A DNA stretch of 64,000 nt from Squalus acanthias (lineage: Eukaryota): positions 98,706,001 to 98,770,000 of the forward strand of contig CM059432.1 of NCBI GenBank assembly GCA_030390025.1, written 5' to 3'. Position 1 is the stretch's first letter. Every line of letters starts with the position of its first letter. This document shows positions 25,772-56,499 of the stretch, piece by piece. Below the pieces are notes generated by a model that worked only from the letters and a program-made list of their open reading frames with translations, did no database searches and was not told the origin of the DNA. The translations under genes were made by a program, and so were the position numbers.

Positions 25772-26821
25772 AATGAATTAGCAAACAAAGACATTGAAGA
25801 CAGCATTAAAGGAATGTCTAGTACATTGCAAATGTGAACGCGTTCTCTGCTCCAATTTGCCAGGAAACCAGCTTGCTTTTTTAAAAAACTGTACTGGCAT
25901 AGTATACGAAAACTTAAGTTGGAGTATAAATACTGAGAGTGAATTCGATATTATGGAGGAAATTTTCATCCCCACTTTTGGGCAGGAATGAGATAAGAGC
26001 ACAGGCTCACCACCAGATACAGGTGGGAGCCTCGTTATCCTATGCAAATTGGGTATATGATGTCAATAGGACCCCGATGCACTTTTGAAGTACTGCCTCC
26101 CACCTGATGGACGCAGAAAAATCAAAGTCGGGCCCAATAGACAGATGGCAGACATCAAAAGTGAATTTTTCAAGATTTTGCGCAATAGAGGGACAGCAGA
26201 GGAACAAAAATCCGCCATATTCCTGCTTGGTTATGGCCTTGATCAAATTTTGCGTCCAGCCTCAGGCATCTGAAGCAGATGGGAGCTTCATTAAAGTATT
26301 CGAAAGGGGGCGTGGAAAGACTCAGGGGCATGCAATGAGAAAGGAAGGAGTGCTGGATCTAGTCCTAGGGAATGAAGTGGGACAAGTGGAGCATGTTTCA
26401 GTTGGGGAGTATTTGGGAAACAGTGATCACAATATCATTAGGTTTAGAGTAGTTATGAAAAAGGATAACAAATGATCAAATATGAAAATATTCAACTGGA
26501 GGAGGACTAATTTCAGTGAGTTGAAAAGGGATCTTGTCCAGGTGGATTGGAGTTAAAGATTGGCAGGTAAAACAATAAATGAGCAATGGGAGGCCTTCAA
26601 AGAGGAGGTAGTTTGGGTACAGACTAAACACATTCCCACAAGGGGGAAAGGAAGGACATCCAAAGCTAGAGCTCCCTGGATGACTAAAGATAGAGATTAA
26701 AATGAAGCAGAAAAAGGAGGCTTATGATAAATATCTGGTTCAGTAGAGAACCAGGCTGAATACAGTGGAGAACTGAAAAAGGAAGTAAGAGGGGCAAAGA
26801 GAGTGTATGAGAATAGATTAT

Positions 26822-27566
26822 CTCCAACAAGCGAGAGTCTAACCACCTCCCCTTGACATTCAACGGCATTACCATCGCCGAATCCCCCACCATCAACATC
26901 CTGGGGGTCAACATTGACCAGAAATTTAACTGGACCAGCCACATAAATACTGTGGCAACAAGAGCAGGTCAGAGGCTAGGTATTCTGCGGCAAGTGTCTC
27001 ACCTCCTGACTCCCCAAAGCCTTTCCACCATCTACAAGGCACAAGGAAGGAGTGTGATGGAATACCCTCCACTTGCCTGGATGAGTGCAGCTGCAACAAC
27101 ATTCAAGAAGATCAATACCATCCAGGACAAAGCAGCTCGTTTGATTGGCACCCCATCCACCACCTTAAACATTCACTCCCTCCACCACCGGCGTACCGTG
27201 GCTGCAGTGTGTACCATCTACAAGATGCACTGAAGCAACTCACCAAGGCTTCTTCGGCAGCACCTCCCAAACCCACGACCTCTTCCACCTAGAAGGGCAA
27301 CAGACGCATGGGAACACCACCACCTCCAAGTTCCCCTCCAAGTCCTACACCATCCTGACTTAGAAGCACATCGCCGATCCTTCATCATCGCTGGGTCAAA
27401 ATCCTGGAACTCCCTATCTAACAGCACTGTGGGAGTACCATCACAACACGGGCTGCAGTGGTTCAAGAAGGCGGCACACCACCACCTTCTAAAGGGCAAT
27501 TAGGGATGGGCAATAAATGCTGGCCTTGCCAGCGACGCCCACATCACATAAACAAATAACAAAAAA
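26822..27566 (+). mobile_element. LINE family B 3' fragment
   Basis: ORF 26853-27233 ILGVNIDQKFNWTSHINTVATRAGQRLGILRQ; A-rich tail. Confidence 0.85.
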
Positions 27567-27940
27567 GGTAAGATAAAAGGGAAATCAAAAGACTTTTATA
27601 AACATCTAGATAGTAAAAGGGTAGTCAAAGGAAGAATGCGGCCAATTAGGGACCAAAAAGGAAATATTCTTGTGGAGGCAGAGGGCATCGCTGAGATACT
27701 AAATTAATACTTTGCATCTGTGTACACTAGAGAAGAGGATTCTGCCAATGTCACAGTAAAGGAGGAGGTAGTAGAGAAATTGGATAGAATAAAAAAGAAG
27801 AAAGAGGGGCGATTTAAAAGGTTGGCAGTGCTCAAAGTAGAAGTCACCCAGTCCAGAGGGGATGCATCCTAGGTTGCTGAGGGAAGTAAGGGTGGAAATT
27901 GCAGAGGCTCTGGCCACAATCTTCCACTCCTCCTTAGACA

Positions 27941-28252
27941 TGTCAACTGTGGCTCAGTTGGTAGCACTCTCAATCTGAGTCAGAAGATTGTGGGTTCATA
28001 GTCCCACTCCAGCTACTTGAGCACAAAAATCTAGGCTGACACTCCAGTCCTGTACTGAGGGAGTGCTGCACTGTCAGAGGTGACATCTTTCAGATGAGAT
28101 GTTAAACCGACGCCCCGTCTGCTCTCTCAGGTGGATGTAATCGATCTCATACCACTATTTCGAAGAAGAGTAGGGGAGTTATCCCTGTGTCCTGGCCAAT
28201 ATTTATCGCTGAATCAGCATCACTAAAAAAAACAGATTATCTGGTCATTATC
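27941..28252 (+). mobile_element. Deu-domain SINE
   Basis: TGGCTCAGTTGGTAGC head and Deu core, similar to 8709-9161. Confidence 0.8.
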
Positions 28253-28442
28253 ATGGTGAACAGTTGCTTTTCTGACTGGAGGGAAATGTGCAATGGTGTC
28301 CTGCAGGGGTTGGTGTTGGGACCACTGCTCTTTTTGATATATACTAATGACCTGGACTTGGGTATACAGGGCATAATGTCAAAGTTTGCAGATGGCATGA
28401 AACTCAGAAATGTAATTAACAATGAGGAGCATAGTAACAGAC

Positions 28443-31400
28443 TTTTTTTTTATTCGTTTATGGGATGTGGGCGTCACTGGCAAGGCCAGCATTTATTGTC
28501 TAATTGCCCTTTAGAAGGTGGTGGTGAGCTGCCTTCTTGAACCGCTGCAGTCTGTGTGGTGAAGGTACACCCACAGTGCTGTTAGGGAGGGAGTTCCAGG
28601 ATTTTAACCTAGCGACGATGAAGGATCGGTGATATACTTCTAAGACAGGATGGTGTATGACTTGGAGGGAAATTAGAGGTGGTGGTGTTCCCATGCACCT
28701 GCTGCCCTTGTCCTTCTAGGTGGAAAATGTCGCGGGTTTGGGAGGTGCTGCCGAAGAAGCCTTGGCGAGTTGCTGCAGTGCATCTTGTAGATGGTACACA
28801 CTGCAGCCACGGTACGCCAGTGGTGGAGGGAGTGGATGTTTAAGGTGGTGCCAATCAAGCGGGATGCTTTGTCCTGGCTGGTGTCGAGTTTCTTGAGTGT
28901 TGTTGGAGCTGCACTCATCCAGGCAAGTGGAGAATATTCCATCACAATCCTTACTTGTGCCTTGTAGATGGTGGAAAGGCATTGGGGAGTCAGGAGGTGA
29001 GACACTCGCCACAAAATACATAGCCTCTGACCTGCTCTTGTTGCCACAGTATTTATGTGGCTGGTCCAGTTAAGTTTCTGGTCAATGGTGACCCCGCAGG
29101 ATTTTGATGGTGGGGGATTTGTTGATGGTAATGCCATTGAATGTCAAGGAGCGGTGCTTAGACTCTCGCTTGTTGGAGATAGACTTGCCTGGCACTTCTG
29201 TGGCACAAATGTTACCTGCCACTTATCAGCCCAAGCCTGAACGTCGCACAGGTCTTGTTGCATGCGGGCATGACTGCTTCATTATCTGAGGAGTTGTGAA
29301 TGGCACTGAACACTGTGCACTCATCAGCGAACATCCCCATTTCTGACCTTATGTTGGAGGGAAGGTCATTGATGAAGCAGCTGAAGATGGTTCGGCCTAG
29401 GACACTGCTCTGAGGAACACCTGCAGCGATGTCCTGGGGCTGTGATGATTGACCTTCAATCACCACAACCATTTTCCTTTGTGCTAGGTATGACTCCAGC
29501 CAGTGGAGAGTTTTCCCCCCGATTCATATTGACTTCAGTTTTACTAGGGCTCCTTGATGCCACACTGGGTCAAATGCTGCCTTGATGTCAAGGGCAGTCA
29601 ATCTCACCTCACTCTGGAATTCAGCTTCTTTGTCCATGTTTGGACCAAGGCTGTAATGAGGTCGGAAGCCGAGTGGTCCTGGCGGAACCCAAACTGAGCA
29701 TGTTAATGGTGAGTAAGTACCACTTGATAGCACCATCCATCACTCTGCTGATGATTGAGAGTAGACTGATGGGGCGGTAATTGGCCGGATTGGATTTGTC
29801 CTGCTTTTTGTGGACAGGACAAACCTGGGCAGTTTTCCACATTATCAGATAGATGCCAGTGTTGTAGCTGTACTGGAACAGCTTGGCTAGAGGCGCAGCT
29901 AGTTCTGGAGCACAAGTCTTCAGTACGATAGCCGGGATGTTGTCAGGTCCCCATAGCCTTTGCTGTATCCAGTGCGCTCAGCCATTTCTTGATATCACGT
30001 GGAGTGAATTAAATTGGCTGCAGACTGGCTTCTGTGATGGTAGGGACCGCAGCAGGAGGCTCATATGGATCATCCACTCGGCACTTATGGCTGAAGATTG
30101 TTAGAACATAAGAACATAAGAAATAGGTGCAGGAGTAGGCCAATCGGCCCCTCGAGCCTGCTCCGCCATTCAATAAGATCATGGCTGATCTGATCCTAAC
30201 CGCCAATCTACTAGCTATCACAGAACCATCTCCTGCATCTAACAGAATTGCACACACGAAATAGGAGCAGAATCAGGCTACACGGTCCCTGGGCCCGCTC
30301 CACTACCCACAGGGCCATGACCGGATCCGAACCTAGACTCATGTCCAAATTCCTGCCCGCTCCCCGTAACCCTTAATGCCCTTTACTTCTAGGAAACTGT
30401 CTATTTCTGTTTTAAATTTATTTAATGATGTAGCTTCTACAGCTTTTTGTGGCAGCATATTCCATGGACCTACCACCCTCTGAGTGAAGTAGTTCCTCCT
30501 CATCTCAGTTTTGAAAGAGCAGCCCCTTATTCTAAGACTATGTCCCCTAGTTCTAGTCTCACCCGTCATCGGGAACATCCTCCCCGCATCCACCCGATCC
30601 AACCCCTTCACAATCTTATATGTTTCAATAAGATCGCCTCTCATTCTTCTGAACTCCAATGAGTAGAGTCCCAATCTACCCAACCTCTCCTCATATGACC
30701 ACCCCCTCATCCCCGGGATTAACCGAGTGAACCTTTTTTTCACTGCCTCGAGAGCAAGGATGTCTTTCCTTAAGTAAGGACACCAAAACTGTATGCAGTA
30801 TTCCAGGTGCGGTCTCACCAATACCTTGTACAACTGAAGCAATACCTCCCTATATTTATATTCTATCCCCCTAGCAATGAAAGCCAACATTCCATTTGCC
30901 TTCTTAATCACTTGCTGCACCTGCATACTAACCTTTTGAGTTTCGTGCACCAGGACCCCCAGATCCCTTTGCACTTCAGTACTCTCCAGTTTCTTGCCAT
31001 TAAGATAATAAATTGCTCTAGGATTTTTCCTGCCAAAGTGCATCACCTCACACTTTCCAGTGTTGTATTCCATCTGCCAAATCTCTGCCCACTTACTTAG
31101 CCTGTCTATGTCCCCTTGCAGGTTTTTTATGTCCTCCTCACTCACTACTTTCCCTCCCATCTTTGTATCATCTGCAAATTTTGATATGTTACACTTGGTC
31201 CCTTCCTCCAAATCGTTAATATAGATTGTAAAGAGTTGGGGAACCAACACTGACCCCTGTGGAACACCACTAGTTACTGATTGCCAGTCTGAGAATGAAC
31301 CATTTATCCCAACTCTTTGCTTTCTGTTAGATAGCCAATCCTCTATCCATGCCAGAATATTACCCCCAATCCCGTGATTTTTTACCTTAAGCAATAATCT

Positions 31401-32326
31401 TTTGTGTGGCACCTTGTCAAATGCCTTTTGGAAGTCTAAATACACTACGTCCACTGGTTCCCCTTTATCCACTGTTGGCAGCTATGTCATTCAGCTTTGC
31501 CAGCAGTGGTGCTGCTGAGCCACTCTTGGTGATGGACATTGACACCCTCCACCCAGAGTACATTCTGTGCCCTTGCTACTCTCAGTGCTTCATCCAAGTG
31601 GTGTTCAACATGGCGGAGTACTGATTCATCAGCTAAGTGAGGTTTCCTTGCCTATGCTTGACCTGAAGGCATGAGACTTCATGTGGTCCGGAGTCAATGT
31701 TGAGGACTCCCAGGGCCACTCCTTCCTGACCGTACACCACTGGTGGGGCTGTCCTGCCGGTGGGACAGGACATACCCAGGAATGGAGGAGTTTTGGGACC
31801 TTGGCTGGAAAGGTATGATTCTGTGAGTCAGGCTGTTGCTTGACTAGTCTGTGGGACAGCTCTCCCAATTTTGGCACAAGTCCCCAGATGTTGGTGACGA
31901 GGACTTTGCAGGGTTGACTGGGCTGGGTGTGCCGTTGCCGTGTCCGTAGCCGTTGCCGAGGTCGTCCGTCCGGTTTCATTTTTATTATTTTGTTTCGTCG
32001 TGGTTAGTTACAACTAAGTGGCTTGCTAGGCCATTTCAGAGAGCAGATAAGAGTCAACAACATTGCTGTGGGTCTGGAGTCACATATAGGCCAGACCCCA
32101 GATTTCCTTCCCTAATGGACATCAGTGAACCAGATGGGTTTTTACAACAATCCGATAGTTTCATTGTTACCATTACTGATACTAGTAATTATTCCAGATT
32201 TATTTAATTAACTGCATTTAAATTCCCCAGCTGTTGTGGTGGGATTTGAACTCACATCTCTGGATCATTAGGCCAGACCTCTGGATTACTAGTCCAGTGA
32301 CATTACCATTACGTTACCGCTCCCAG
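28443..32326 (-). mobile_element. LINE family B (EN/RT remnants), interrupted by a young CR1; left boundary firm, right boundary approximate
   Basis: Peptides ALDIKAAFD, GVPQSSVLG, MFADE, NPANYRPISLLSIISR; EN-like TNIWGLVPKLGEL at ~31850-31900. Confidence 0.75.
30103..31472 (-). mobile_element. Young 5'-truncated CR1 LINE with an uninterrupted 377-aa RT C-terminal frame (30339-31472)
   Basis: YLDFQKAFDKV, GVPQGSVL, SKFADDTK; (AGAACATA)n tail; TGTT on both flanks (30099-30102 / 31473-31476). Confidence 0.93.
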
Positions 32327-34499: not shown

Positions 34500-36061
34500 T
34501 GTAAGGGATTCCTGACCCTGCGTGTCTCGTAGCCTGTGAGATTCACGCGGCTCTGTGCAGCCTGTATGTCAGTGCGGGTCTAGGCCTGGTTGCCTGTTCT
34601 GGTCTCCAGCCAGTCTGGGAACACTAGACACACCTGTGAGTGGTTCGAATCACTCTCCCTTACGGTTCTAGACACTGGACTTAGATGCGAGAGCAGTAAT
34701 GGAGATAAAACTCATGTAGACTTGGTTTGAATGGTACGAAATGGAAAATCTTTATTGCATGATACTTAAAATTATGAAATACATGTCATAAGCACAGATT
34801 AATGACAGTACAATCTTACAAACGGTTATATAGTCGATCTTAGGGAAACGAGGAACGAACGGCACAACGTAAATAGGGGCACACATTACAAATATCCTTA
34901 ATCTTTAAACCCTCCCCTATCAATATCTATCCTAAACTAGCTTCGTAGGATCTCGAGACTCATGCTCACCACTCGTGATAACTCGGAGAAATTCCGAATA
35001 GCTGATCGGATGTTTTTCACCGCAGCACCCACGTGTCGGTCAGGAGATCTCCTGGTCCCACTTGTTTACTTGCTTCTGCTGCTCCGGCTAGTAGGCTGGA
35101 CCGTCTGCTGTGGTGAAGACCTCGTGGCGATGGATATGGTCTTCTTCTCTCATCTCATCTCATCTCATCTCATCTCATCTCATCTCGGGCCTTTGGTTCC
35201 GCTGCCAGTTACCAACATAGGTCTTCGTTACGCGACACGAGGTAGATCCGAACGGATCAGAAAGTTCAACAGTCTTTTCAGAAGAGGCAACAGGCACGCA
35301 GAAGCCCAACTACGAGTACACAGGAGCAGCCACGAGGTTACGAATCGACCGGATAAAACACAGGAGCAATCGAGCGAACGCAGGAGCACGAACAAGAGCA
35401 CGAGGCCAGAGGCAAGAGACAAGAGAGCGAGTGGACGGTTTGGGGCCTGCAATTATAGTGCAAAAATCTTCCGTTTCCCGCCCAACTATAATGTCCATTC
35501 TTTTGTTTAGGGTTTGGCGCCCAAATGTCTTGTATGGGTGATCTCCGTCCTTAATGGGTTTCGGGGCTACTCATGAATGTTTGAGTACCTGTTAATATTT
35601 CTCCCATTGTTAAATCGGTCGGTGTTCTCCCTGGAGGGGTTTGGGGCTTCCAAGTGTCCTGTATAACTACCTGCTAACGGCTCTCTCATCGTAGAGTCGT
35701 TGGGAGTTTACATATTAATGTCCTTTGGATGGGCCCTTGATTACTCGGTACAATGGCTTTCCTTTGTACCTGGGAGACCGATTCCAGTATCTATGTTTAT
35801 ACTGTAAACCCATAATGTCTCGTGTATTATCTTCACTGTGCTGAATCGTTATCGATCTTGAAAAAAACGTTTAATGGAACGCCATCTTGTCTGCCTGTTG
35901 AAAAGTCTAGAATGTTCTGTCACGAGGTGCGGCGGCCATTTTACAGGCTGCTTGTGTCCAATTTAAACCTGTCAGCATTCTGCTGAAATAAAAGCTGTTT
36001 GAACGAAACTTTGTGTTTTCTCCTTATTAATCAAATCGCGATATATATTGCGAATTCTACA
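34500..36061 (-). repeat. 3' LTR (1562 bp)
   Basis: Minus strand TGTAGAATTC...CCCTTACA; AATAAA at 34751-34756; internal (GAGAT)n microsatellite. Confidence 0.96.
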
Positions 36062-36070
36062 GTCCCTCCT
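36062..36070 (-). promoter_or_regulatory. Short polypurine tract
   Basis: Minus strand AGGAGGGAC directly abuts the 3' LTR TGT. Confidence 0.7.
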
Positions 36071-36483
36071 GTTGATGCGAATAACTCCGCTTATCGTATC
36101 AAAAATCACAGTGGTGAGCAATCTTATCTCGATTTCACTCCGAATCCAGTAAATTAATCCCATAAATTTTAACTTAACTAGGGTCTCTGTGTCGTCCTTA
36201 TTTCCCAAGAAAATCACATTTTATATCACCGTAGGCATCATTTGCCCTTAAACTTACACCACTTGTTTTCCTTCCCGGCGTAACCAGGCCGATACCTCAC
36301 GCATCACCTGTATATTTGTCTTTTATTCAGGGAAAGGAAAAACAAAACCCGAAACCAAACAATCAACACCATCACCAAAATAAACAAATCCCAACTCTTA
36401 AACATGTCGAGTTTCCAACGTATTTACAATGAGTACAAACTTCCGCGGCGCACGCGGCGAGCGGGAGTGACGCCATTTTCCTA

Positions 36484-38835
36484 TTACACGGTGCTCTCAT
36501 CGTGCACGCGCACGTAACGTTCTCGCCACTCTCCCGTGTTTTCATGCTTGGTGAGGCGCTTGTCTCTTTTACAATGTATGAACAATAGGTACACTACAAT
36601 AAACACTTGACAGACGACTAAAATGTGGGAGGCTATTCTGATCCATGAAGGCACTTCAATATTGGTGAACAGATTCCACCACGGTGGAACCACTATGTCC
36701 AAAATGTCTGTTCCTATTTCGACAGTTTTCTGCTCTAATGTATAAAAATGTTTCTGTGATACCGCGACGGCTTTCAGAAGTTTGGTTAAATGCTCAGGGA
36801 GAGGGGGAATGAGGTATCCAAAATGCGCGACAAATCGCTGCAAGTCGGTGAAATTCTCTTTTACTGTGAGGTGAACAGTGGATGGTTCAGGGATTGGGAT
36901 AATTCGCTGTTGTGCTACTTGAACTTCAGCCCTGGGTTTAAAACAGAAACTGCTGTCACTCACCGGACACCGGCTACGGTTTCCATGCTGGTAGTGTTGC
37001 GCTGCAGTGGTAACACAATATGTTCCACCCCCGATGTATGCTACCTGCGGAGGCACATGATCTTGTGCCATTGCCTCCATGGTGCAATTCATGGACTTGG
37101 CGCCAGCCGTTCTGAACCCGCACTGTGGTGTTAAAAAGGCATTCAAGTGCTGGGGGCACAGTATTATGTGTGCTCCCCTGCCACGACAACCAGAGAGATC
37201 TGTACCTGTCATCGTTTGCTCCCAGCGGATGACGTAAGGTGGAACCGCTGCATAACGAATGTGGGCTCCCCCCTGAATGACACCAATGTTCTCTACCCGA
37301 TACACCGGGGCGGGCTTTGCTGTGTCGCCCAAAACCGGCATGCGTAATACTATTCCCATAACAGTATGGTTTGATCGTCCGCAGTCCACGGGGACTGGGT
37401 AAGCTTCTGAAGCTAGCCTGAGCTGGCACGGGCTTAATGCGTTCTGAAAAGGGTGGAGCGCCCGCAGGTGTTTGTTACTTATCCAGGACGGAACCAAACC
37501 TTGTTTTAAATCCTCCAAATTACTGCGGCCCTCGCCCAGTAACCACGCCCCGTAAAGCACGCACACCTCGTTCTGCGCAGCTTGATCGGATGCATTCCGA
37601 TCTTCCCTGATCAGGGCATTTACCGTACGCGCATGTTTCTCCAGCTCTGCTATAATTTCCTTTAAATGGAGAGTCATGGCTTGGTCCTCGTGTAGACCGG
37701 ATCCTACCACTTTATTCTCATCTGTTAGAATGTCTTTTAACTGTGTTTTTAAACCATTAATCTGGGTCTGCAGCTCCACACTGTCTAGAGCGTTGACCAC
37801 AGATGTCCCTGTGTTAAAAGCAGTGAACGCATCGTTCACCAAACCCCTTCTTTGCCTCCCTACTTGATCCAAAACTTCCTGCGGTGCGGTGTACAAACTT
37901 GTCTTATCAATTTCTGCAAAATCAAACTCGTAAAATTGTCTGAACATCTTGGTCAACAGGACCTGATACAACTGTTCCGTCTTTTTGGGGCACCACTCTG
38001 GTAACCGTACCTCAGTGAGATTTAAAATCACCGAGGCCACCGCGTAATGTACCCCCTGAAATAGTATCTGGTCTGTGGGGACCAGTACCAAACCGTTCCC
38101 GGGTCCCTTACTAGTTTTAGGGCACCCTTCTTCCTCAGCTAGAACCACCGGAATCGTGGGCGGGGCTTTGCGTGGGCGCGTAATGAGTTCAGTGGCATTT
38201 ACTGGGATCGGGGAGAATGGGGCTCCGCACCCCCTGGTGCTCGCATCCCACCTCATCCCCTGTCCGTTATCCTGCCACTGATTAATAAAAAATATGGAGA
38301 TGCCTTTGGGGCAAACGTACTTTGACCCCCACATACATACATAAATCCCCTCATCCGGTTCCCACCATTTGTCCCAACAGACTTTCACTTGTCCGTCTGT
38401 CCCCGTAATTGTCCGATGGGTATTATTACCCAGTCGTTCCCACTCGACCGAAGAGTTTCTCATAGTTTTGCTCAGCTTTCGCAGCCACCACCATCGGCTC
38501 AATGGGACATCCCCACTACAGGTCAAACAAATCCGTTTGCCGACGGTGACGCTGATCCTGGGTGCGATGATCCGTACTTTGGGGCACATTAAAGAAGTCT
38601 CTTTGTAGGCGAACCCCGATGTGCTGGAATACTCCGTTGAGTTCGTTCCCAGCCATCCTGGCCACCTTCCCTTGTGGAAATAGGTGCTGGTCCCCTCTGC
38701 CTTCCGTCTTCCGGTCCCATCCACCGCGATGGGGGCCGTGTCCCCGGAACATCCAAACACCACGACATCCTTGGTGTGGCCTCGATAGGCCAATCCACAT
38801 CCGATTGCCACGAGCAATACTAGAATTCATTCCAT
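36484..38835 (-). CDS. env: Envelope glycoprotein: signal peptide, Ig-like domain, furin site, class I fusion subunit, transmembrane helix (nonsense codon at codon 3)
   Basis: 777 open codons preceded in frame by ATG GAA TGA ATT CTA GTA. Contains DEGIYVC Ig motif, RQRR|GLVN cleavage/fusion peptide, heptad repeat, Cys-rich region, and TM SHILVVCQVFIVVYLLFIHC. Confidence 0.88.
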
Positions 38836-39124
38836 CCTTCCTTGGTTCCTGTGATCAGATAGAATGAGGTAGCCAGCCTCGCAAAAGTCTCTGGCTTTTG
38901 TGAAGGGTGAGCGGGTCCCCTGACCTCGCCTCACGTAAACTTCAACGTTTGCTGCATAGACTTCCTCTAAACCTAGCCTTAAAACTCCCATCATTTTATC
39001 GTTTTCTGTTAAAACACTACAAACTTAACCTTGAACTAATAAACTTAAAACTTAACCTTGAACTATAAACTTAAAACCTTAAACTAATAACTTTACAGTG
39101 CCGCCCGTTCTCAGGGCGGCCCCT

Positions 39125-40384
39125 TTAAATTCTGAGAAGGCTGCTGCGAGCTCTTCCCGACGGTGGGAGGGCACTGACCCTTCCCTCTGATCTGCCGCAG
39201 CCTGTTGCTGCGCTGACCCTTTCCTCTGATCTGCCGCAGCCTGTTGCTGCGCTGACCCTTTCCTCTGATCTGCCGCAGCCTGTTGCTGCGCTGACCCTTT
39301 CCTCTGATCTGCCGCAGCCTGTTACTGCTGCGATGTGGCCTGTCTCTACCCGGGTTATCTTAACCTGAAGTCTACGCCTTGGGGCAGTCTGGGGACATGA
39401 CCACATCCTCCTAGGCTGGGGTTCTCTACTTGACCTACGGGGAGTTGCTATGGGCGGGGGTTCCGTGACGGACGGACCGGGTTCCGAGACCTCCAACGGG
39501 ATGACCTGGGGTTCCATCACAGTCGCCGGCTCCGCCTCCGCTGACTCCGCCTCCCTAACCTCGGGGCTGGCAGTTCGTGGCTCCGCCCTGCTCGGCCCAG
39601 CAGGCGGCCCTTCACTCGTGATCTCTGCCTCCCCTGAGGACTGGACGTTCAAGGCGGGCGGCCACATCTCTGGGAGCCACATTGGTACTCTCTGTGCTCC
39701 TATAGCGGCTGGCCCTGCCTCCTCTAGCTCCTCCCTCCTGTCCTCGGGACCTGCAGCTTGTGTGTCCACCCTGTGTGGATCTCTACCTATCGGCCCCATT
39801 CCCCCCAGACCGTTCCTCAGGAACCACCCGTCATCATCACTATGCTCATCTGCACTATCCTCATCTGACCAGGGTACCCTGGGTTCTTCGTCATCTAACC
39901 CCCAACTCCAGAAAAACGCTGCATGATCGTCCGGGATGTCCCTTCCTCTGATGCAAGCTGCTATGCCTGCCTGTGTGCCTTGTGGTCCTACCTGGGGCTG
40001 TGCTTTCCCACTCGCAGGTCTGGCCCCTCCCTTAAGACAGGCCACCGCCCCTGCTTGTTTCTGTGAAATCTCACCTGCTGGAGGCTGCAGATTTCTATCC
40101 TGTTTTAAATACTCATACTCCCTGCTCCTGGCTACCCTGTAGGCTGTTTTTATCTCTCTAAGCTGCCCTTCTAGCCTGAGCACGTCTAACTTTCCCATTG
40201 ATCGGGCGTTCTCCTCCCGCAGGGCCTGCTCTCTAAGCTGCCCTTCCAGCCTATCTATTTTCCCTATTAAGCGGGCGTTCTCCTCCCGCAAGGCCTGCTC
40301 TTTTAACCTGGCCTCCTCACCGCAGACCCCCTCCTGTGCGTGTCTTTTAAAAGGACACAGGTAGGCAGGCTGCGTGGGCTCTAG
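39125..40384 (-). CDS. ORF2 of unknown function in the pol position, in frame with gag via a UGA-CUAG stop
   Basis: 419 open codons directly after the gag TGA: coiled-coil repeats, acidic WSDEDSADEHSDDDGWF patch, Pro/Glu-rich region, 13-aa repeats. No protease, RT or integrase motifs. Confidence 0.75.
   Translation of the reverse strand, partial: LEPTQPAYLCPFKRHAQEGVCGEEARLKEQALREENARLIGKIDRLEGQLREQALREENARSMGKLDVLRLEGQLREIKTAYRVARSREYEYLKQDRNLQPPAGEISQKQAGAVACLKGGARPASGKAQPQVGPQGTQAGIAACIRGRDIPDDHAAFFWSWGLDDEEPRVPWSDEDSADEHSDDDGWFLRNGLGGMGPIGRDPHRVDTQAAGPEDRREELEEAGPAAIGAQRVPMWLPEMWPPALNVQSSGEAEITSEGPPAGPSRAEPRTASPEVREAESAEAEPATVMEPQVIPLEVSEPGPSVTEPPPIATPRRSSREPQPRRMWSCPQTAPRRRLQVKITRVETGHIAAVTGCGRSEERVSAATGCGRSEERVSAATGCGRSEERVSAATGCGRSEGRVSALPPSGRARSSLLRI
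39174..39326 (-). repeat. 39-bp coding tandem repeat, ~4 copies (TGCGRSEERVSAA)
   Basis: Plus-strand unit CTGACCCTTTCCTCTGATCTGCCGCAGCCTGTTGCTGCG. Confidence 0.95.
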
Positions 40385-42196
40385 TCATGGGGCACTATTA
40401 GACGGTCCTGCGGCACCTACGGGGCCGGTTGCGACCGCCACCTGTCCACGCGCATTCAAAACCAGCTTGCGCATGGCTCCTAACACTGCTTCGAGGTCGT
40501 CGGGAGGGGTGGGTGCCTTGGCTTCCTTAGCCGGGACAGGCGCCTGGGTTCGGACCGCGGGATTTTTATCCTTGGAATCCTTCCAAGGGTTCCTGCAGTG
40601 CTTGCGCCAGTGCCCTGTCTTCCCACACCCGTAACAGGCATTACTTGCCTGTGGGGCGCGATTACCCTCCTGATGCCACTCTCTTTGAGCCGGGGCTGCG
40701 GGTCGTACCTCATGTACTCTTCCCTTAAAGGGACGTGTCGTCATACCCCTTATGTTACGGTAACCTAACGTGAGTCGATTCAAGACCGACTCTTCCGTAA
40801 GGTTGAGGTCATTGGGATCGAACCAGGCTTTTGCCTGCTCTCTAACGGCTGGTAAACTGTTGGCTATTATGCACCTAAGCCAATGAATTAGAGCGGCGCC
40901 TTCCACATCTTCGCGCTCGGGCGCACCTAGACAGCTGCGCTCATATACTGGCCACAGCCTGTCGGCAAAAACCTTCGGGGGTTCTCCCTCCATCTGCACT
41001 GTCTGTCCCACTCTAGCAAACGGACCTCCGTCGTTCGCCCCCACTACTTCTAGGACCTCATTTTTCAATTCCTCATAACTTTTGTTTCCCCTCTTGCTCT
41101 CGCCTGAGAGGCACTGAAGGACCGAGCTGTCTAACGAGAACAGCAGCATTTTTGCTGTCTCCCCATCATCGCAGCCGTTAATGGCTGCGGCTTGCTCAAC
41201 TTCCCTGAAATGTACGGAAGGGTCGTCTATCTCGGTCAGCTTCCGTACGTGATTTATCATAGCTCTCAGCTGATGTGAACTGTGAGGCAACACCAGCTGT
41301 CCGAGGAGATCCCCCGGTTCTTCCGCACCGTTTCTGCTCAGGCCCCTTTTAATACCCGTTACTGGATACAACGATCCCTTTTTTACCTCCTTTTCAATGG
41401 GCTCTTTTGTTTCTTCCGTTGCTTCCTCCCTAACCCAGGTTTCTGAATAGCTGGGTGGCGCGGAGGGCGCAGTGGCTACTACTTCTGCTGCTTTACTTGG
41501 TGGGGAATTTCTAAATCTCTCATTTACTAGCGGCTGGTGCGCCGACGGATTGATAAGGCACACCATGCCGTTCGCATTATTCACGGCCTTTTTGAGGCTC
41601 TCTATCTCCCTTTGGCAGGCGCTATGGTCGGCTCCCTGAAACTTATCCTCAAGGGCCAACTTATACGCCGACCTAACCCCCATTAAGCTCTCTTCTTGAG
41701 TTCTTATCTGGGCAGCTTGGCGGTTACATCTTTCCTTTAACCTACTCTCATTCAATTTTGCTTCAGTGACCTGGCACTCGAGATACTCTATCCTTGTTTT
41801 AAGGTAACTGGAGACTTCCTGGCTTTCCTGGTGTAACTCATTTAAATTCTTAATGAGCACCTCCCCTCCAGAAACCTTCTCCTCCATTTCTCCCTCTAAA
41901 TGGCTGACACGAGCTGTTAGCGCTGTAATGGTCTGGTTTGAAATCTGAACCTGCCTTTTGTAGCACATAAGCCAGACTGCTTTCTCAACTGCCTTTTTAT
42001 GTTCCTTACTATCAGTCCACCTTTCAGCTGCCTCTAGTGGGCTCTTATCCGCTAACAATTCACTTATCCACTTCTTAGTTAGATTAACCTTTCCAAACAC
42101 ATAATCCGCTATCTTTTCCTGCATAACATTTCGTACAGTCATTCCAAAATCTAACACACTACCCTCTCGCTGCCAGTGTCCTGCCGCGGTCGCCAT
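40385..42196 (-). CDS. gag: Gag polyprotein (603 aa)
   Basis: N-terminal coiled coil, PSAPPSY late domain, capsid MHR-like QMEGEPPKVFADRL, zinc knuckle CYGCGKTGHWRKHC (40595-40636). Confidence 0.93.
   Translation of the reverse strand: MATAAGHWQREGSVLDFGMTVRNVMQEKIADYVFGKVNLTKKWISELLADKSPLEAAERWTDSKEHKKAVEKAVWLMCYKRQVQISNQTITALTARVSHLEGEMEEKVSGGEVLIKNLNELHQESQEVSSYLKTRIEYLECQVTEAKLNESRLKERCNRQAAQIRTQEESLMGVRSAYKLALEDKFQGADHSACQREIESLKKAVNNANGMVCLINPSAHQPLVNERFRNSPPSKAAEVVATAPSAPPSYSETWVREEATEETKEPIEKEVKKGSLYPVTGIKRGLSRNGAEEPGDLLGQLVLPHSSHQLRAMINHVRKLTEIDDPSVHFREVEQAAAINGCDDGETAKMLLFSLDSSVLQCLSGESKRGNKSYEELKNEVLEVVGANDGGPFARVGQTVQMEGEPPKVFADRLWPVYERSCLGAPEREDVEGAALIHWLRCIIANSLPAVREQAKAWFDPNDLNLTEESVLNRLTLGYRNIRGMTTRPFKGRVHEVRPAAPAQREWHQEGNRAPQASNACYGCGKTGHWRKHCRNPWKDSKDKNPAVRTQAPVPAKEAKAPTPPDDLEAVLGAMRKLVLNARGQVAVATGPVGAAGPSNSAP
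42178..42195 (-). promoter_or_regulatory. Primer-binding site, tRNA-Arg(TCG)
   Basis: TGGCGACCGCGGCAGGAC lies 5 nt after the 5' LTR and is complementary to the vertebrate tRNA-Arg-TCG 3' end GTCCTGCCGCGGTCG-CCA as I recall it. Confidence 0.85.
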
Positions 42197-42200
42197 TTTC

Positions 42201-43764
42201 TGTAAGGGATTCCCCTGACCCTGCGTGTCTCGTAGCCTGTGAGATTCACGCGGCTCTGTGCAGCCTGTATGTCAGTGCGGGTCTAGGCCTGGTTGCCTGT
42301 TCTGGTCTCCAGCCAGTCTGGGAACACTAGACACACCTGTGAGTGGTTCGAATCACTCTCCCTTACGGTTCTAGACACTGGACTTAGATGCGAGAGCAGT
42401 AATGGAGATAAAACTCATGTAGACTTGGTTTGAATGGTACGAAATGGAAAATCTTTATTGCATGATACTTAAAATTATGAAATACATGTCATAAGCACAG
42501 ATTAATGACAGTACAATCTTACAAACGGTTATATAGTCGATCTTAGGGAAACGAGGAACGAACGGCACAACGTAAATAGGGGCACACATTACAAATATCC
42601 TTAATCTTTAAACCCTCCCCTATCAATATCTATCCTAAACTAGCTTCGTAGGATCTCGAGACTCATGCTCACCACTCGTGATAACTCGGAGAAATTCCGA
42701 ATAGCTGATCGGATGTTTTTCACCGCAGCACCCACGTGTCGGTCAGGAGATCTCCTGGTCCCACTTGTTTACTTGCTTCTGCTGCTCCGGCTAGTAGGCT
42801 GGACCGTCTGCTGTGGTGAAGACCTCGTGGCGATGGATATGGTCTTCTTCTCTCATCTCATCTCATCTCATCTCATCTCATCTCATCTCGGGCCTTTGGT
42901 TCCGCTGCCAGTTACCAACATAGGTCTTCGTTACGCGACACGAGGTAGATCCGAACGGATCAGAAAGTTCAACAGTCTTTTCAGAAGAGGCAACAGGCAC
43001 GCAGAAGCCCAACTACGAGTACACAGGAGCAGCCACGAGGTTACGAATCGACCGGATAAAACACAGGAGCAATCGAGCGAACGCAGGAGCACGAACAAGA
43101 GCACGAGGCCAGAGGCAAGAGACAAGAGAGCGAGTGGACGGTTTGGGGCCTGCAATTATAGTGCAAAAATCTTCCGTTTCCCGCCCAACTATAATGTCCA
43201 TTCTTTTGTTTAGGGTTTGGCGCCCAAATGTCTTGTATGGGTGATCTCCGTCCTTAATGGGTTTCGGGGCTACTCATGAATGTTTGAGTACCTGTTAATA
43301 TTTCTCCCATTGTTAAATCGGTCGGTGTTCTCCCTGGAGGGGTTTGGGGCTTCCAAGTGTCCTGTATAACTACCTGCTAACGGCTCTCTCATCGTAGAGT
43401 CGTTGGGAGTTTACATATTAATGTCCTTTGGATGGGCCCTTGATTACTCGGTACAATGGCTTTCCTTTGTACCTGGGAGACCGATTCCAGTATCTATGTT
43501 TATACTGTAAACCCATAATGTCTCGTGTATTATCTTCACTGTGCTGAATCGTTATCGATCTTGAAAAAAACGTTTAATGGAACGCCATCTTGTCTGCCTG
43601 TTGAAAAGTCTAGAATGTTCTGTCACGAGGTGCGGCGGCCATTTTACAGGCTGCTTGTGTCCAATTTAAACCTGTCAGCATTCTGCTGAAATAAAAGCTG
43701 TTTGAACGAAACTTTGTGTTTTCTCCTTATTAATCAAATCGCGATATATATTGCGAATTCTACA
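42201..43764 (-). repeat. 5' LTR (1564 bp)
   Basis: Matches the 3' LTR; the only difference I saw by eye is an extra CC in the C-run at 42212-42215. Confidence 0.96.
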
Positions 43765-54784: not shown

Positions 54785-56499
54785 TGTAAAGTTTCGCAAT
54801 TATCGCGATTCGAAATAACAAGATAGAAGCAGATTCGTTTGATCAGTTTATTTAAACGAAATGCTGTCATGATATAAAGGACACAGAAGCCTGTAAAATG
54901 GCCACCGAGCATCGTGGCAGAAGCTTCCAGAAGTACCGTGGGCAGACAAGATGGCGTTCGAATAAACATTTTCAATATAAGACGGGATCATACTCGATAA
55001 GCACTGATAAAGACAGGATGAAACCTGTTTGCATTTGTGACAATAGCAAAAGATATGAGTGCTGGAATCGTTTTCCATGCACAAGTAAGGACCATTGTAC
55101 TGGGCAATCGAAGGCCCATCCAGACACATCAATACACAAATACCCCCACGGCTCTACAATGAGAGAGCCATTCTCGGGTGATTAAACAAGTATTCGGGGG
55201 CCCCCAAAACCAGTCAGGGAGACGATTCATACGATCCTGGCTGGGCCAACAATGGGGAAAACATTAACGGGTAGTTGGCCAGTCTCAGGTGCTATCGAAA
55301 CCCGTTAAAGACAAGAATCACCCCATGCTGGGAGTTTTGAGCGCCAATATTTCACAAAGGTCAAACATTAAGATTTGGGCGGGAGATAACGGAACACAGC
55401 ACTCTAACTATAGACAACAAATGTCCATCGCTCTCTTATTCTCTTATCTCGCTGCTGACTGTTGAGGGTTTTATTCTCTTATTCGCTTGCCGCTTCATGA
55501 ACTTGCTTGACTGGTGAGCTTCTGTGCTTTTCCTGGACTTTGTTGACTCTTAGCCGTACTGGTCGGTTATTCGAATGTTGGGTGGAGCTCAAACGGAACG
55601 AGCCGCCTCAACGAGGGCAAGTGACCGAGTGCACCATCCCGAGGGTCGGTAAATGGTGTCCGGACCCGAAGGCCCGAAGAGACGAGACGAGACGAGAAGA
55701 AGAGGAGAAGAATCCACGTGCCGCCACGGTCAGTAAACCCCGACCGCGCCCAAAAATATAAGAAAGAACTTTTCATTGAAGTCTTCCGACAACCGGTGTT
55801 GGGGACAGGAAGACTCTTCTTCGAATTCTACCGACAACTGGTATCAGTACAGGAAGACTTTTCTTTGAATTCTACAGCCGGGCCCGAGTGCTGTCGAGTT
55901 CTTCATGACAGCGGGGAGCCCAGCCTGCTTGCCGCAGCAGCGAAGATAAACAAGTGGGGTACAGAGACCCCTCCAAACACGTGACAGTCAGGCGCTGCAG
56001 CGAAACGAGCCGAGTGCCTCACTTTAAAATTCTCCGAAGTATCACGAGTGGTGAGCATGTTTCCCGATCCTACAAATCTAGACGTAGTGTAGGTATTGAT
56101 AGGGGAGGGTGGTTTTAATAAGGATAAAGTATAATGTGTTCCCCTTTTTACGATGTGCCGTGCGTTCTTCATTACCATAGACCAAGCTTTATGAATGTAT
56201 GTATACTTGTACTCTCGTTAATTTGCGCCTATGACATGTACTTCATGATCTTGGATGCTATGCAATAAAGATTTCCATTTCGTACTATTCAACCAGGGTC
56301 TGTTTGGGTTTTTCTCTGCATTACTGCTCTCGCACCTAAGTCCAGTGTTAGAACCGTAAGGGCGAGTGGGTCGAACCACTCACAGGTGCTTACTGCAACA
56401 AGGCTGGCCGGAGACCAGAGCAAGCAATAGTATTAGGCAACGAAGGCCTAACCCCGCACCAGCACCGTCTGCGATACAAGCACGCCAAAACCCCTTACA
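54785..56499 (+). mobile_element. Solo LTR (1715 bp), third variant of the provirus LTR family
   Basis: TGTAAAGTTTCGC...CCCCTTACA with TSD CCTT (54781-54784 / 56500-56503), inserted between CR1 ORF1 and ORF2. Confidence 0.93.

Follow-up and report, generated by a model that had tools for sequence, protein, structure and literature searches.

A probable immunoglobulin-like domain in the N-terminal head of an F-type retroviral Env from Squalus acanthias

The Env protein of an endogenous retrovirus (ERV) family of Squalus acanthias was predicted to combine a paramyxovirus-F-type class I fusion core with an N-terminal head, in which residues 81-180 very probably fold as an immunoglobulin (Ig) domain. 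Single tests of sequence and model for this fold were weak, but together they were concordant. The head slot is modular: Env lineages of sharks and frogs vary in the head set on the same core, and some have none. The combination of an Ig head with an F-type core was not found in the literature searched; Ig receptor-binding domains (RBDs) on other retroviral Envs are already known.

Provirus and layout of the Env protein

The window (the whole 64,000-nucleotide stretch analysed, from contig CM059432.1) contained a minus-strand provirus at 34500-43764, with gag, a pol remnant and an env frame of 780 aa (36484-38826, minus). Features of the provirus and of its predicted Env were as follows:

42201-43764, minus: 5' LTR with TG...CA ends, flanked by a 4-bp target-site duplication (CAGC)
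40385-42196, minus: gag, with a coiled-coil N-terminal part and a CCHC knuckle (zf-CCHC Pfam match below cut-off)
39125-40384, minus: pol remnant, with the pol start and C-terminal extension present (by comparison with 20 other copies)
38788-38835, minus: Env start codon (38833-38835) and signal-like hydrophobic stretch
38587-38784, minus: N-terminal head subdomain, residues 15-80, with C26 (conserved; pLDDT below 50)
38287-38586, minus: predicted Ig-like domain, residues 81-180 (motif, profiles, predicted structure)
38125-38286, minus: head-to-core linker, residues 181-234, with a conserved C200 and a Pro/Thr-rich end
36667-38124, minus: predicted F-type class I fusion core, residues 235-720 (AF2 model and Foldseek)
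36484-36648, minus: transmembrane helix (36571-36648), cytoplasmic tail and stop (hydropathy; model helix 727-763)
34500-36061, minus: 3' LTR, preceded by a purine tract; no mismatch and one 2-base gap relative to the 5' LTR

Both LTRs were about 1.56 kb long. The gag ATG lay 4 nt downstream of the 5' LTR, so the leader must sit mostly within this unusually long LTR; the ATG also overlapped a TGGCG start resembling a primer-binding site (42190-42201, minus). Gag closed with a TGA-CTAG stop (40381-40387, minus), past which the next ORF continued the same frame, as did pol in the copies read. We take this to be a stop read-through context, built on UGA where gamma/epsilon retroviruses use UAG.

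The PR, RT, RNase H and IN regions of pol were gone from this copy, with about 340 nt of unrelated sequence instead. Pol was carried by 14 of the 20 other copies sampled, and the deletion was common to six of the 20 (L014, L021, L022, L029, L031 and L032). Together with this copy they make up a pol-deleted subfamily that retained gag, env and an open frame of about 400 aa, with a short coiled-coil repeat, replacing the enzymes; it is likely mobilised in trans. The long C-terminal extension of pol past the integrase encompassed 39-bp tandem repeats (39132-39326), whose copy number differed among proviruses. The third codon of env was an in-frame stop in this copy (38827-38829), while eight of the ten other loci read, out of 12 sampled, had an open Met start. 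With pol deleted and env interrupted at codon 3, the function proposed below applies to the family and not to this copy.

The ERV family is very young and abundant: the domain sequence was identical in 149 of the best 150 scored matches (of 5467 candidates in the own genome), and the LTRs were free of mismatches. The closest named proteins were from Rhinoraja, Pristiophorus and Rhincodon. Two contig sets guessed to be RNA spanned the element, a coverage that cannot show transcription. Elsewhere in the window, a fragment of the same LTR family was found in opposite orientation (56027-56427, 79% identical), together with an inverted pair of LINE-like fragments (26819-29181 and 30339-31481, arms 88-93% complementary) and a 380-aa frame resembling, by eye, a CR1-type reverse transcriptase. 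No tRNA genes were found within the window.

Sequence and predicted structure of the Ig-like domain

A sequence-only reading of this DNA had proposed a V-type Ig domain at 38325-38565, between the signal peptide and the fusion module of Env. Its place was right, the domain itself being somewhat larger (about 38287-38586), and the motifs on which it relied were present in the Env frame as ISVTVGKRICLTCSG (C100, C103), WWWLRK (W112-114) and WEPDEGIYVCMW (D158-C164). These provide the Ig hallmarks of a B-strand Cys (C103), a C-strand Trp (W113/W114) and an F-strand DEGIYVC, all conserved in a 17-row alignment. The location between a signal-like N-terminus and an F-like core starting at residue 235 was also borne out, with about 65 conserved residues, absent from that reading, separating the signal from the domain; identity among homologues over this N-terminal subdomain (15-80) was 45-72%.

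The spacing between the B and F cysteines (C103-C164) was 61, compared with 65-74 in 24 host V domains. Four further conserved cysteines (C81, C100, C150 and C172) and two sequons (N124 and N134) were located within the domain; these cysteines, like the stop at env codon 3, had been missed by the sequence-only reading. C100 and C150 were invariant in all 17 aligned domains, lying 3 residues ahead of the B cysteine and 14 ahead of the F cysteine, respectively, positions which we take to be cross-strand neighbours in Ig V domains, with the B facing the E strand; the two may form a cross-strand pair. Conservation of C81/C172 and C26/C200 as well suggests a nested head with four disulfides. The CLTC at 100-103 was considered as a gamma-type thiol-isomerase motif and rejected, having no CX6CC partner, with both its cysteines fitting the Ig register.

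The B-Cys/C-Trp/DxGxYxC pattern occurred in 8 of 20000 shuffles of Env, an optimistic figure given that the pattern was written post hoc. Against an HMM of 26 host I-set domains, the domain outscored 985 of 1000 shuffles with a score of only 2.5 bits, and its relatives P0096 and P0009 outscored 1000 and 999 of 1000, respectively. When host profiles were compared, 76 of 500 shuffles beat the domain on the V profile and 6 of 500 on the I-set profile, the latter being a biased sample of mostly titin-like domains. The Pfam search suggested by the sequence-only reading gave a match to Ig_3 (E=0.017, 16 bits versus a curated cut-off of 30) and none to V-set or I-set. Ig_3 was matched by all 17 domains of the alignment (older subfamilies and other species), every one below cut-off (best E=3.6e-4), and V-set (PF07686) by none of the 17. 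The best PDB match of the domain profile was the Ig domain of CRTAM (positions 11-102, E=0.0068), in an alignment nearly gap-free over 92 positions. The single-sequence PDB search returned nothing significant (best, JAM-A domain 2, E=1.3), and the whole-Env profile gave nothing below E=0.25 against PDB sequences.

In the ESM Atlas, nine of the ten best matches with a family agreed on Ig at the level of family or clan (top score 0.90), a lead only; about one third of shuffled proteins also yield one-clan lists. The AlphaFold check proposed earlier came out as six strands in the Ig order B-C-C'-D-E-F at low confidence (AF2, pLDDT 58, pTM 0.53). The A and G strands were unmodelled, and C' alone was seen, without C'', where pLDDT was about 50. 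Foldseek rows listed for this model were antibody, TCR and pre-BCR chains (best E=1.9e-3, TM 0.45-0.59), none of them at E<=0.001. All 50 rows listed by VIA were Ig-containing chains (Z 7.0-7.9, rmsd 2.4-3.9), at Z values below 8, which can reflect a common arrangement and lie below the level that the tool deems safe; in several of these entries the aligned part was an antibody fragment. In the full-length AF2 model, the head was mostly at pLDDT below 50.

Profiles, Atlas and model matches together point to an Ig-superfamily (IgSF) fold, so this part of the proposed V-type assignment stands. A canonical V-set is not supported, in view of the missing Pfam V-set match, the spacing of 61 and the better I-set profile, while a short V-type like that of CRTAM may still apply. 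The domain is predicted to be a short, disulfide-rich V/I-set Ig fold with a C103-C164 B-F disulfide. It resembles CRTAM D1, JAM-A D2, CD147 D2 and titin/obscurin I-set domains by its Cys spacing near 60, strand order and DxGxYxC, and differs from the short V/I-set adhesion domains by an identity of about 20% or less, Trp-rich C and E-F segments and two predicted extra disulfides. That the Ig match could be domain II of the F core itself was ruled out by position, since the core begins only at residue 235.

The domain was 56-66% identical to nine copies of older subfamilies. Pairwise dN/dS was 0.09-0.15 in seven of the nine comparisons (two were saturated), against 0.10-0.11 for the core and 0.25-0.47 for the flanking head parts, all values being rough because dS was close to saturation. 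The eight head cysteines were all present in four of the five database homologues spanning the head. Low dN/dS argues that the Ig-like domain was kept as a working part under purifying selection. It was nearly as conserved as the core and not hypervariable, a mild point against a receptor arms race or a fast-evolving RBD.

Fusion core, retroviral lineage and exchange of heads

The core (residues 235-720) was modelled by AF2 with fair confidence. Its best Foldseek match was the F protein of hPIV3 (E=4.8e-11), and all 41 rows listed were paramyxovirus or pneumovirus F, with no foamy virus Env among them. It displayed a furin-type RQRR (37846-37857, residues 324-327), a fusion-peptide-like stretch (37777-37845), long helices, Cys-rich beta domains and a second heptad helix, and is predicted to be a paramyxovirus-F-type class I fusogen. 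No CX6CC motif was found in the 780 aa of Env, which is therefore not gamma-type. The core stretch 560-660 lacked the Ig motif, and its score was reached by 66 of 1000 shuffles, that is, it scored like shuffles.

A pol-bearing copy encoded PR, RT, tether, RNase H and IN. Pfam matches to RT_RNaseH (470-602) and RNase_H (650-793) reflected the dual RNase H common to all retroviruses. The RT carried LPQG and YVDD motifs, unlike published lokiretrovirus RTs (PFGY type). In a tree of 31 RTs the family was placed among frog and coelacanth elements, the nearest named RTs being about 53% identical. A branch of 0.89 (support 95/96) parted it from two RTs with the loki motif, the loki labels having been set by motif and the published loki rows and labelled SnRV/ERV-L rows lying outside the tree. 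We rejected lokiretrovirus membership on the basis of these RT motifs and this tree. By eye, the RT motifs were like those of MuERV-L, and the best PDB match of the integrase alone was PFV. Most ERV RTs of cartilaginous fish are assigned to clade III in the account of PMC11089739. The family likely belongs to class III, in a retroviral lineage that is apparently undescribed.

Lokiretrovirus Envs start just after the signal peptide, at a motif matching residue ~241, and were headless in seven of eight entries (of 23; one partial), so that the head here appears as an addition. Other relatives carried different heads in the same slot. The head of P0012 (Chiloscyllium), named 'Ig-like domain-containing' in UniRef, outscored all 500 shuffles with the V profile; that of P0034 was V-set-like (E=0.0014) without the cysteines. 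The frog heads P0019 and P0046 displayed Ig-like patterns with weak scores, P0019 reaching Ig clusters of the ESM Atlas at scores of 0.86 at most. The P0011 group had a Cys-rich head, and P0036 and P0047 were headless. Pfam Ig families were absent from the P0019, P0046 and P0011 heads and from six other heads of the own genome. Homology between different heads was not found by HHalign (probability 0.3% and 2.8%). In a tree of 13 cores, four of them under half filled, this family had the Cys-rich P0011 group as its sister (100/100), and the V-set-like Env was placed next to a headless one (97/96). This mixture of head types across the core tree implies gains, swaps or losses.

The own genome harbored more F-type Env families (L056, L059, L063, L068-L077), with cores about 30% identical and distinct Cys-rich heads on mucin-like Thr/Pro stalks before the same core; V-profile scores of the L073 and L056 heads were weak, being reached by 4 and 10 of 500 shuffles, respectively. 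The P0046 cluster of Mantella aurantiaca encompassed 16 near-identical F-type Envs with an Ig-like head, a second recent expansion of the lineage. Two Pristiophorus gene models (P0002 and P0007) had Env fragments fused to Niban-like and zinc-finger host genes, which could reflect faulty annotation or proviral pieces that became exons.

Searches for a host donor of the domain returned Env-derived proteins only with the profile (five matches) and proviral copies throughout the best 150 of the 5467 own-genome candidates. The best of 50 host domains scored 7.4 bits, and the best identities were about 20%. Plausibly, the Ig fold was taken long ago from a host IgSF gene, the donor being no longer nameable from sequence.

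Proposed role of the head and relation to known Envs

We consider it fairly probable that the domain centres an N-terminal head acting as a swappable attachment module of the F-type fusogen, by analogy and on grounds of position, stalk, modularity and precedent. After signal cleavage, a furin-type cut at RQRR would leave the head on the N-terminal subunit, held outward on the Pro/Thr-rich linker. The head would bind a partner on the target-cell surface, as host adhesion Ig domains do, and the F core would then fuse the membranes. Attachment would thus be supplied in cis, comparable to the inserted RBD of foamy viruses; paramyxoviruses obtain it from a separate attachment protein.

Two observations sit uneasily with attachment: the domain is about as conserved as the core, unlike a fast-evolving RBD, and the core also occurs on its own, in headless relatives. 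The equally low dN/dS would suit a structural role, in which the domain caps the prefusion core to shield and stabilise it, helps it to fold or spaces it from the target, with receptor contact elsewhere, and so would a rigid nested head as suggested by the eight conserved cysteines, and the two sequons within the domain. We regard this as unlikely, because headless relatives and lokiretrovirus Envs exist and because dissimilar heads share the slot behind long Thr/Pro stalks, an arrangement that a flexibly tethered binder fits better. Since the best sequence matches were adhesion or immune IgSF members (CRTAM and, at E=1.3, JAM-A domain 2), the domain might instead mimic a host IgSF ligand (CRTAM/nectin-, CD147- or JAM-like) and dampen immune cells, outside entry. 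Such a role seems quite improbable, as identity to any host domain was about 20% or less, whereas a SIRP-like RBD retains clear similarity and contact residues, and no sign of shedding or separate expression was seen.

The Ig likeness itself could stem from chance or convergence, in a virus-born beta-rich domain or a duplicate of the Ig-fold domain II of the F core. Every score fell short of its threshold, domain II of F itself adopts an Ig-superfamily fold, and shuffled proteins readily give one-clan Atlas lists; five methods nevertheless concurred on Ig, the CRTAM alignment was full-length and almost gap-free, the motif was rare among shuffles, and the core stretch 560-660 had neither motif nor a score above shuffles. 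We therefore hold this origin to be highly doubtful and retain the attachment module as the preferred reading.

The fusion-core fold is common to paramyxovirus/pneumovirus F and this Env, and we know of no N-terminal Ig head on those F proteins. The sequence-only reading had stated that classical retroviral SU domains and paramyxovirus F proteins do not begin with a canonical V-set domain. For retroviruses the contrast was partly wrong, since the RBDs of MLV and FeLV are described as modified IgV folds and Env-Dbi as bearing a canonical SIRP-derived IgV RBD at its N-terminus (Hotzel, bioRxiv 10.1101/2024.03.17.585361). In kind, therefore, both Ig-headed Envs and capture from a host are already known. 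The present Env resembles Env-Dbi and gamma-type RBD-C, as presented there, in having an N-terminal IgV-type domain, a linker and extra disulfides, with RBDs swapped among Env lineages. It differs by a cartilaginous-fish host, an F-type core without CX6CC and no recognisable donor, those RBDs sitting on gamma/alpha-type Envs of amniotes and the SIRP donor being clear.

Like lokiretroviruses as described in PMC7947760, the family has an F-like Env with signal, furin site, fusion peptide, coiled coil and TM, and a pol tether and RNase H; unlike them, it possesses an N-terminal head and an LPQG rather than PFGY-type RT. The four sharks and the chimaera in the lokiretrovirus table of that paper carry no loki mark (Wang and Han, PMC7947760). 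Foamy virus Env, in the description of PMC11468914, is likewise a retroviral Env built on a core like that of paramyxo/pneumovirus F, and carries an RBD of its own, which has a novel fold and is inserted in domain III, whereas the extra domain here is N-terminal and Ig-like. Neither 'immunoglobulin' nor 'Ig-like' appears anywhere in the main text of a paper on errantivirus F-type Envs (bioRxiv 10.1101/2023.10.26.564294). A survey of anamniote Envs covers, in its available text, gamma- and beta-type Envs (bioRxiv 10.1101/2021.11.23.469661), and that of a preprint on Anura mentions neither immunoglobulin nor paramyxo (10.1101/2024.07.05.601823). The accessible parts of PMC6001957, PMC4422223 and bioRxiv 10.1101/2024.03.25.586437 had no bearing on the head. 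The literature searched, subscription journals lying outside it, yielded no account of an F-type retroviral Env with an Ig head.

A wider picture can be offered tentatively, as one possibility: sharks, rays and frogs may host a lineage of true retroviruses with an F-type Env whose slot was repeatedly filled by host-derived IgSF and other heads, and the one Ig-headed family multiplying now may represent a bare F that gained an RBD by gene capture. F-type class I fusogens acquire target specificity in various ways, through a separate attachment protein or by insertion of an RBD. With an Ig head at the N-terminus of an F core, and with heads that vary among related Envs, the capture and exchange of RBDs, hitherto a matter of gamma/alpha-type Envs, would reach an F-type lineage, and the headless lokiretrovirus Env would be connected with the RBD-bearing foamy Env. 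The youth and abundance of the family bring its receptor and its influence on the host within reach of study.
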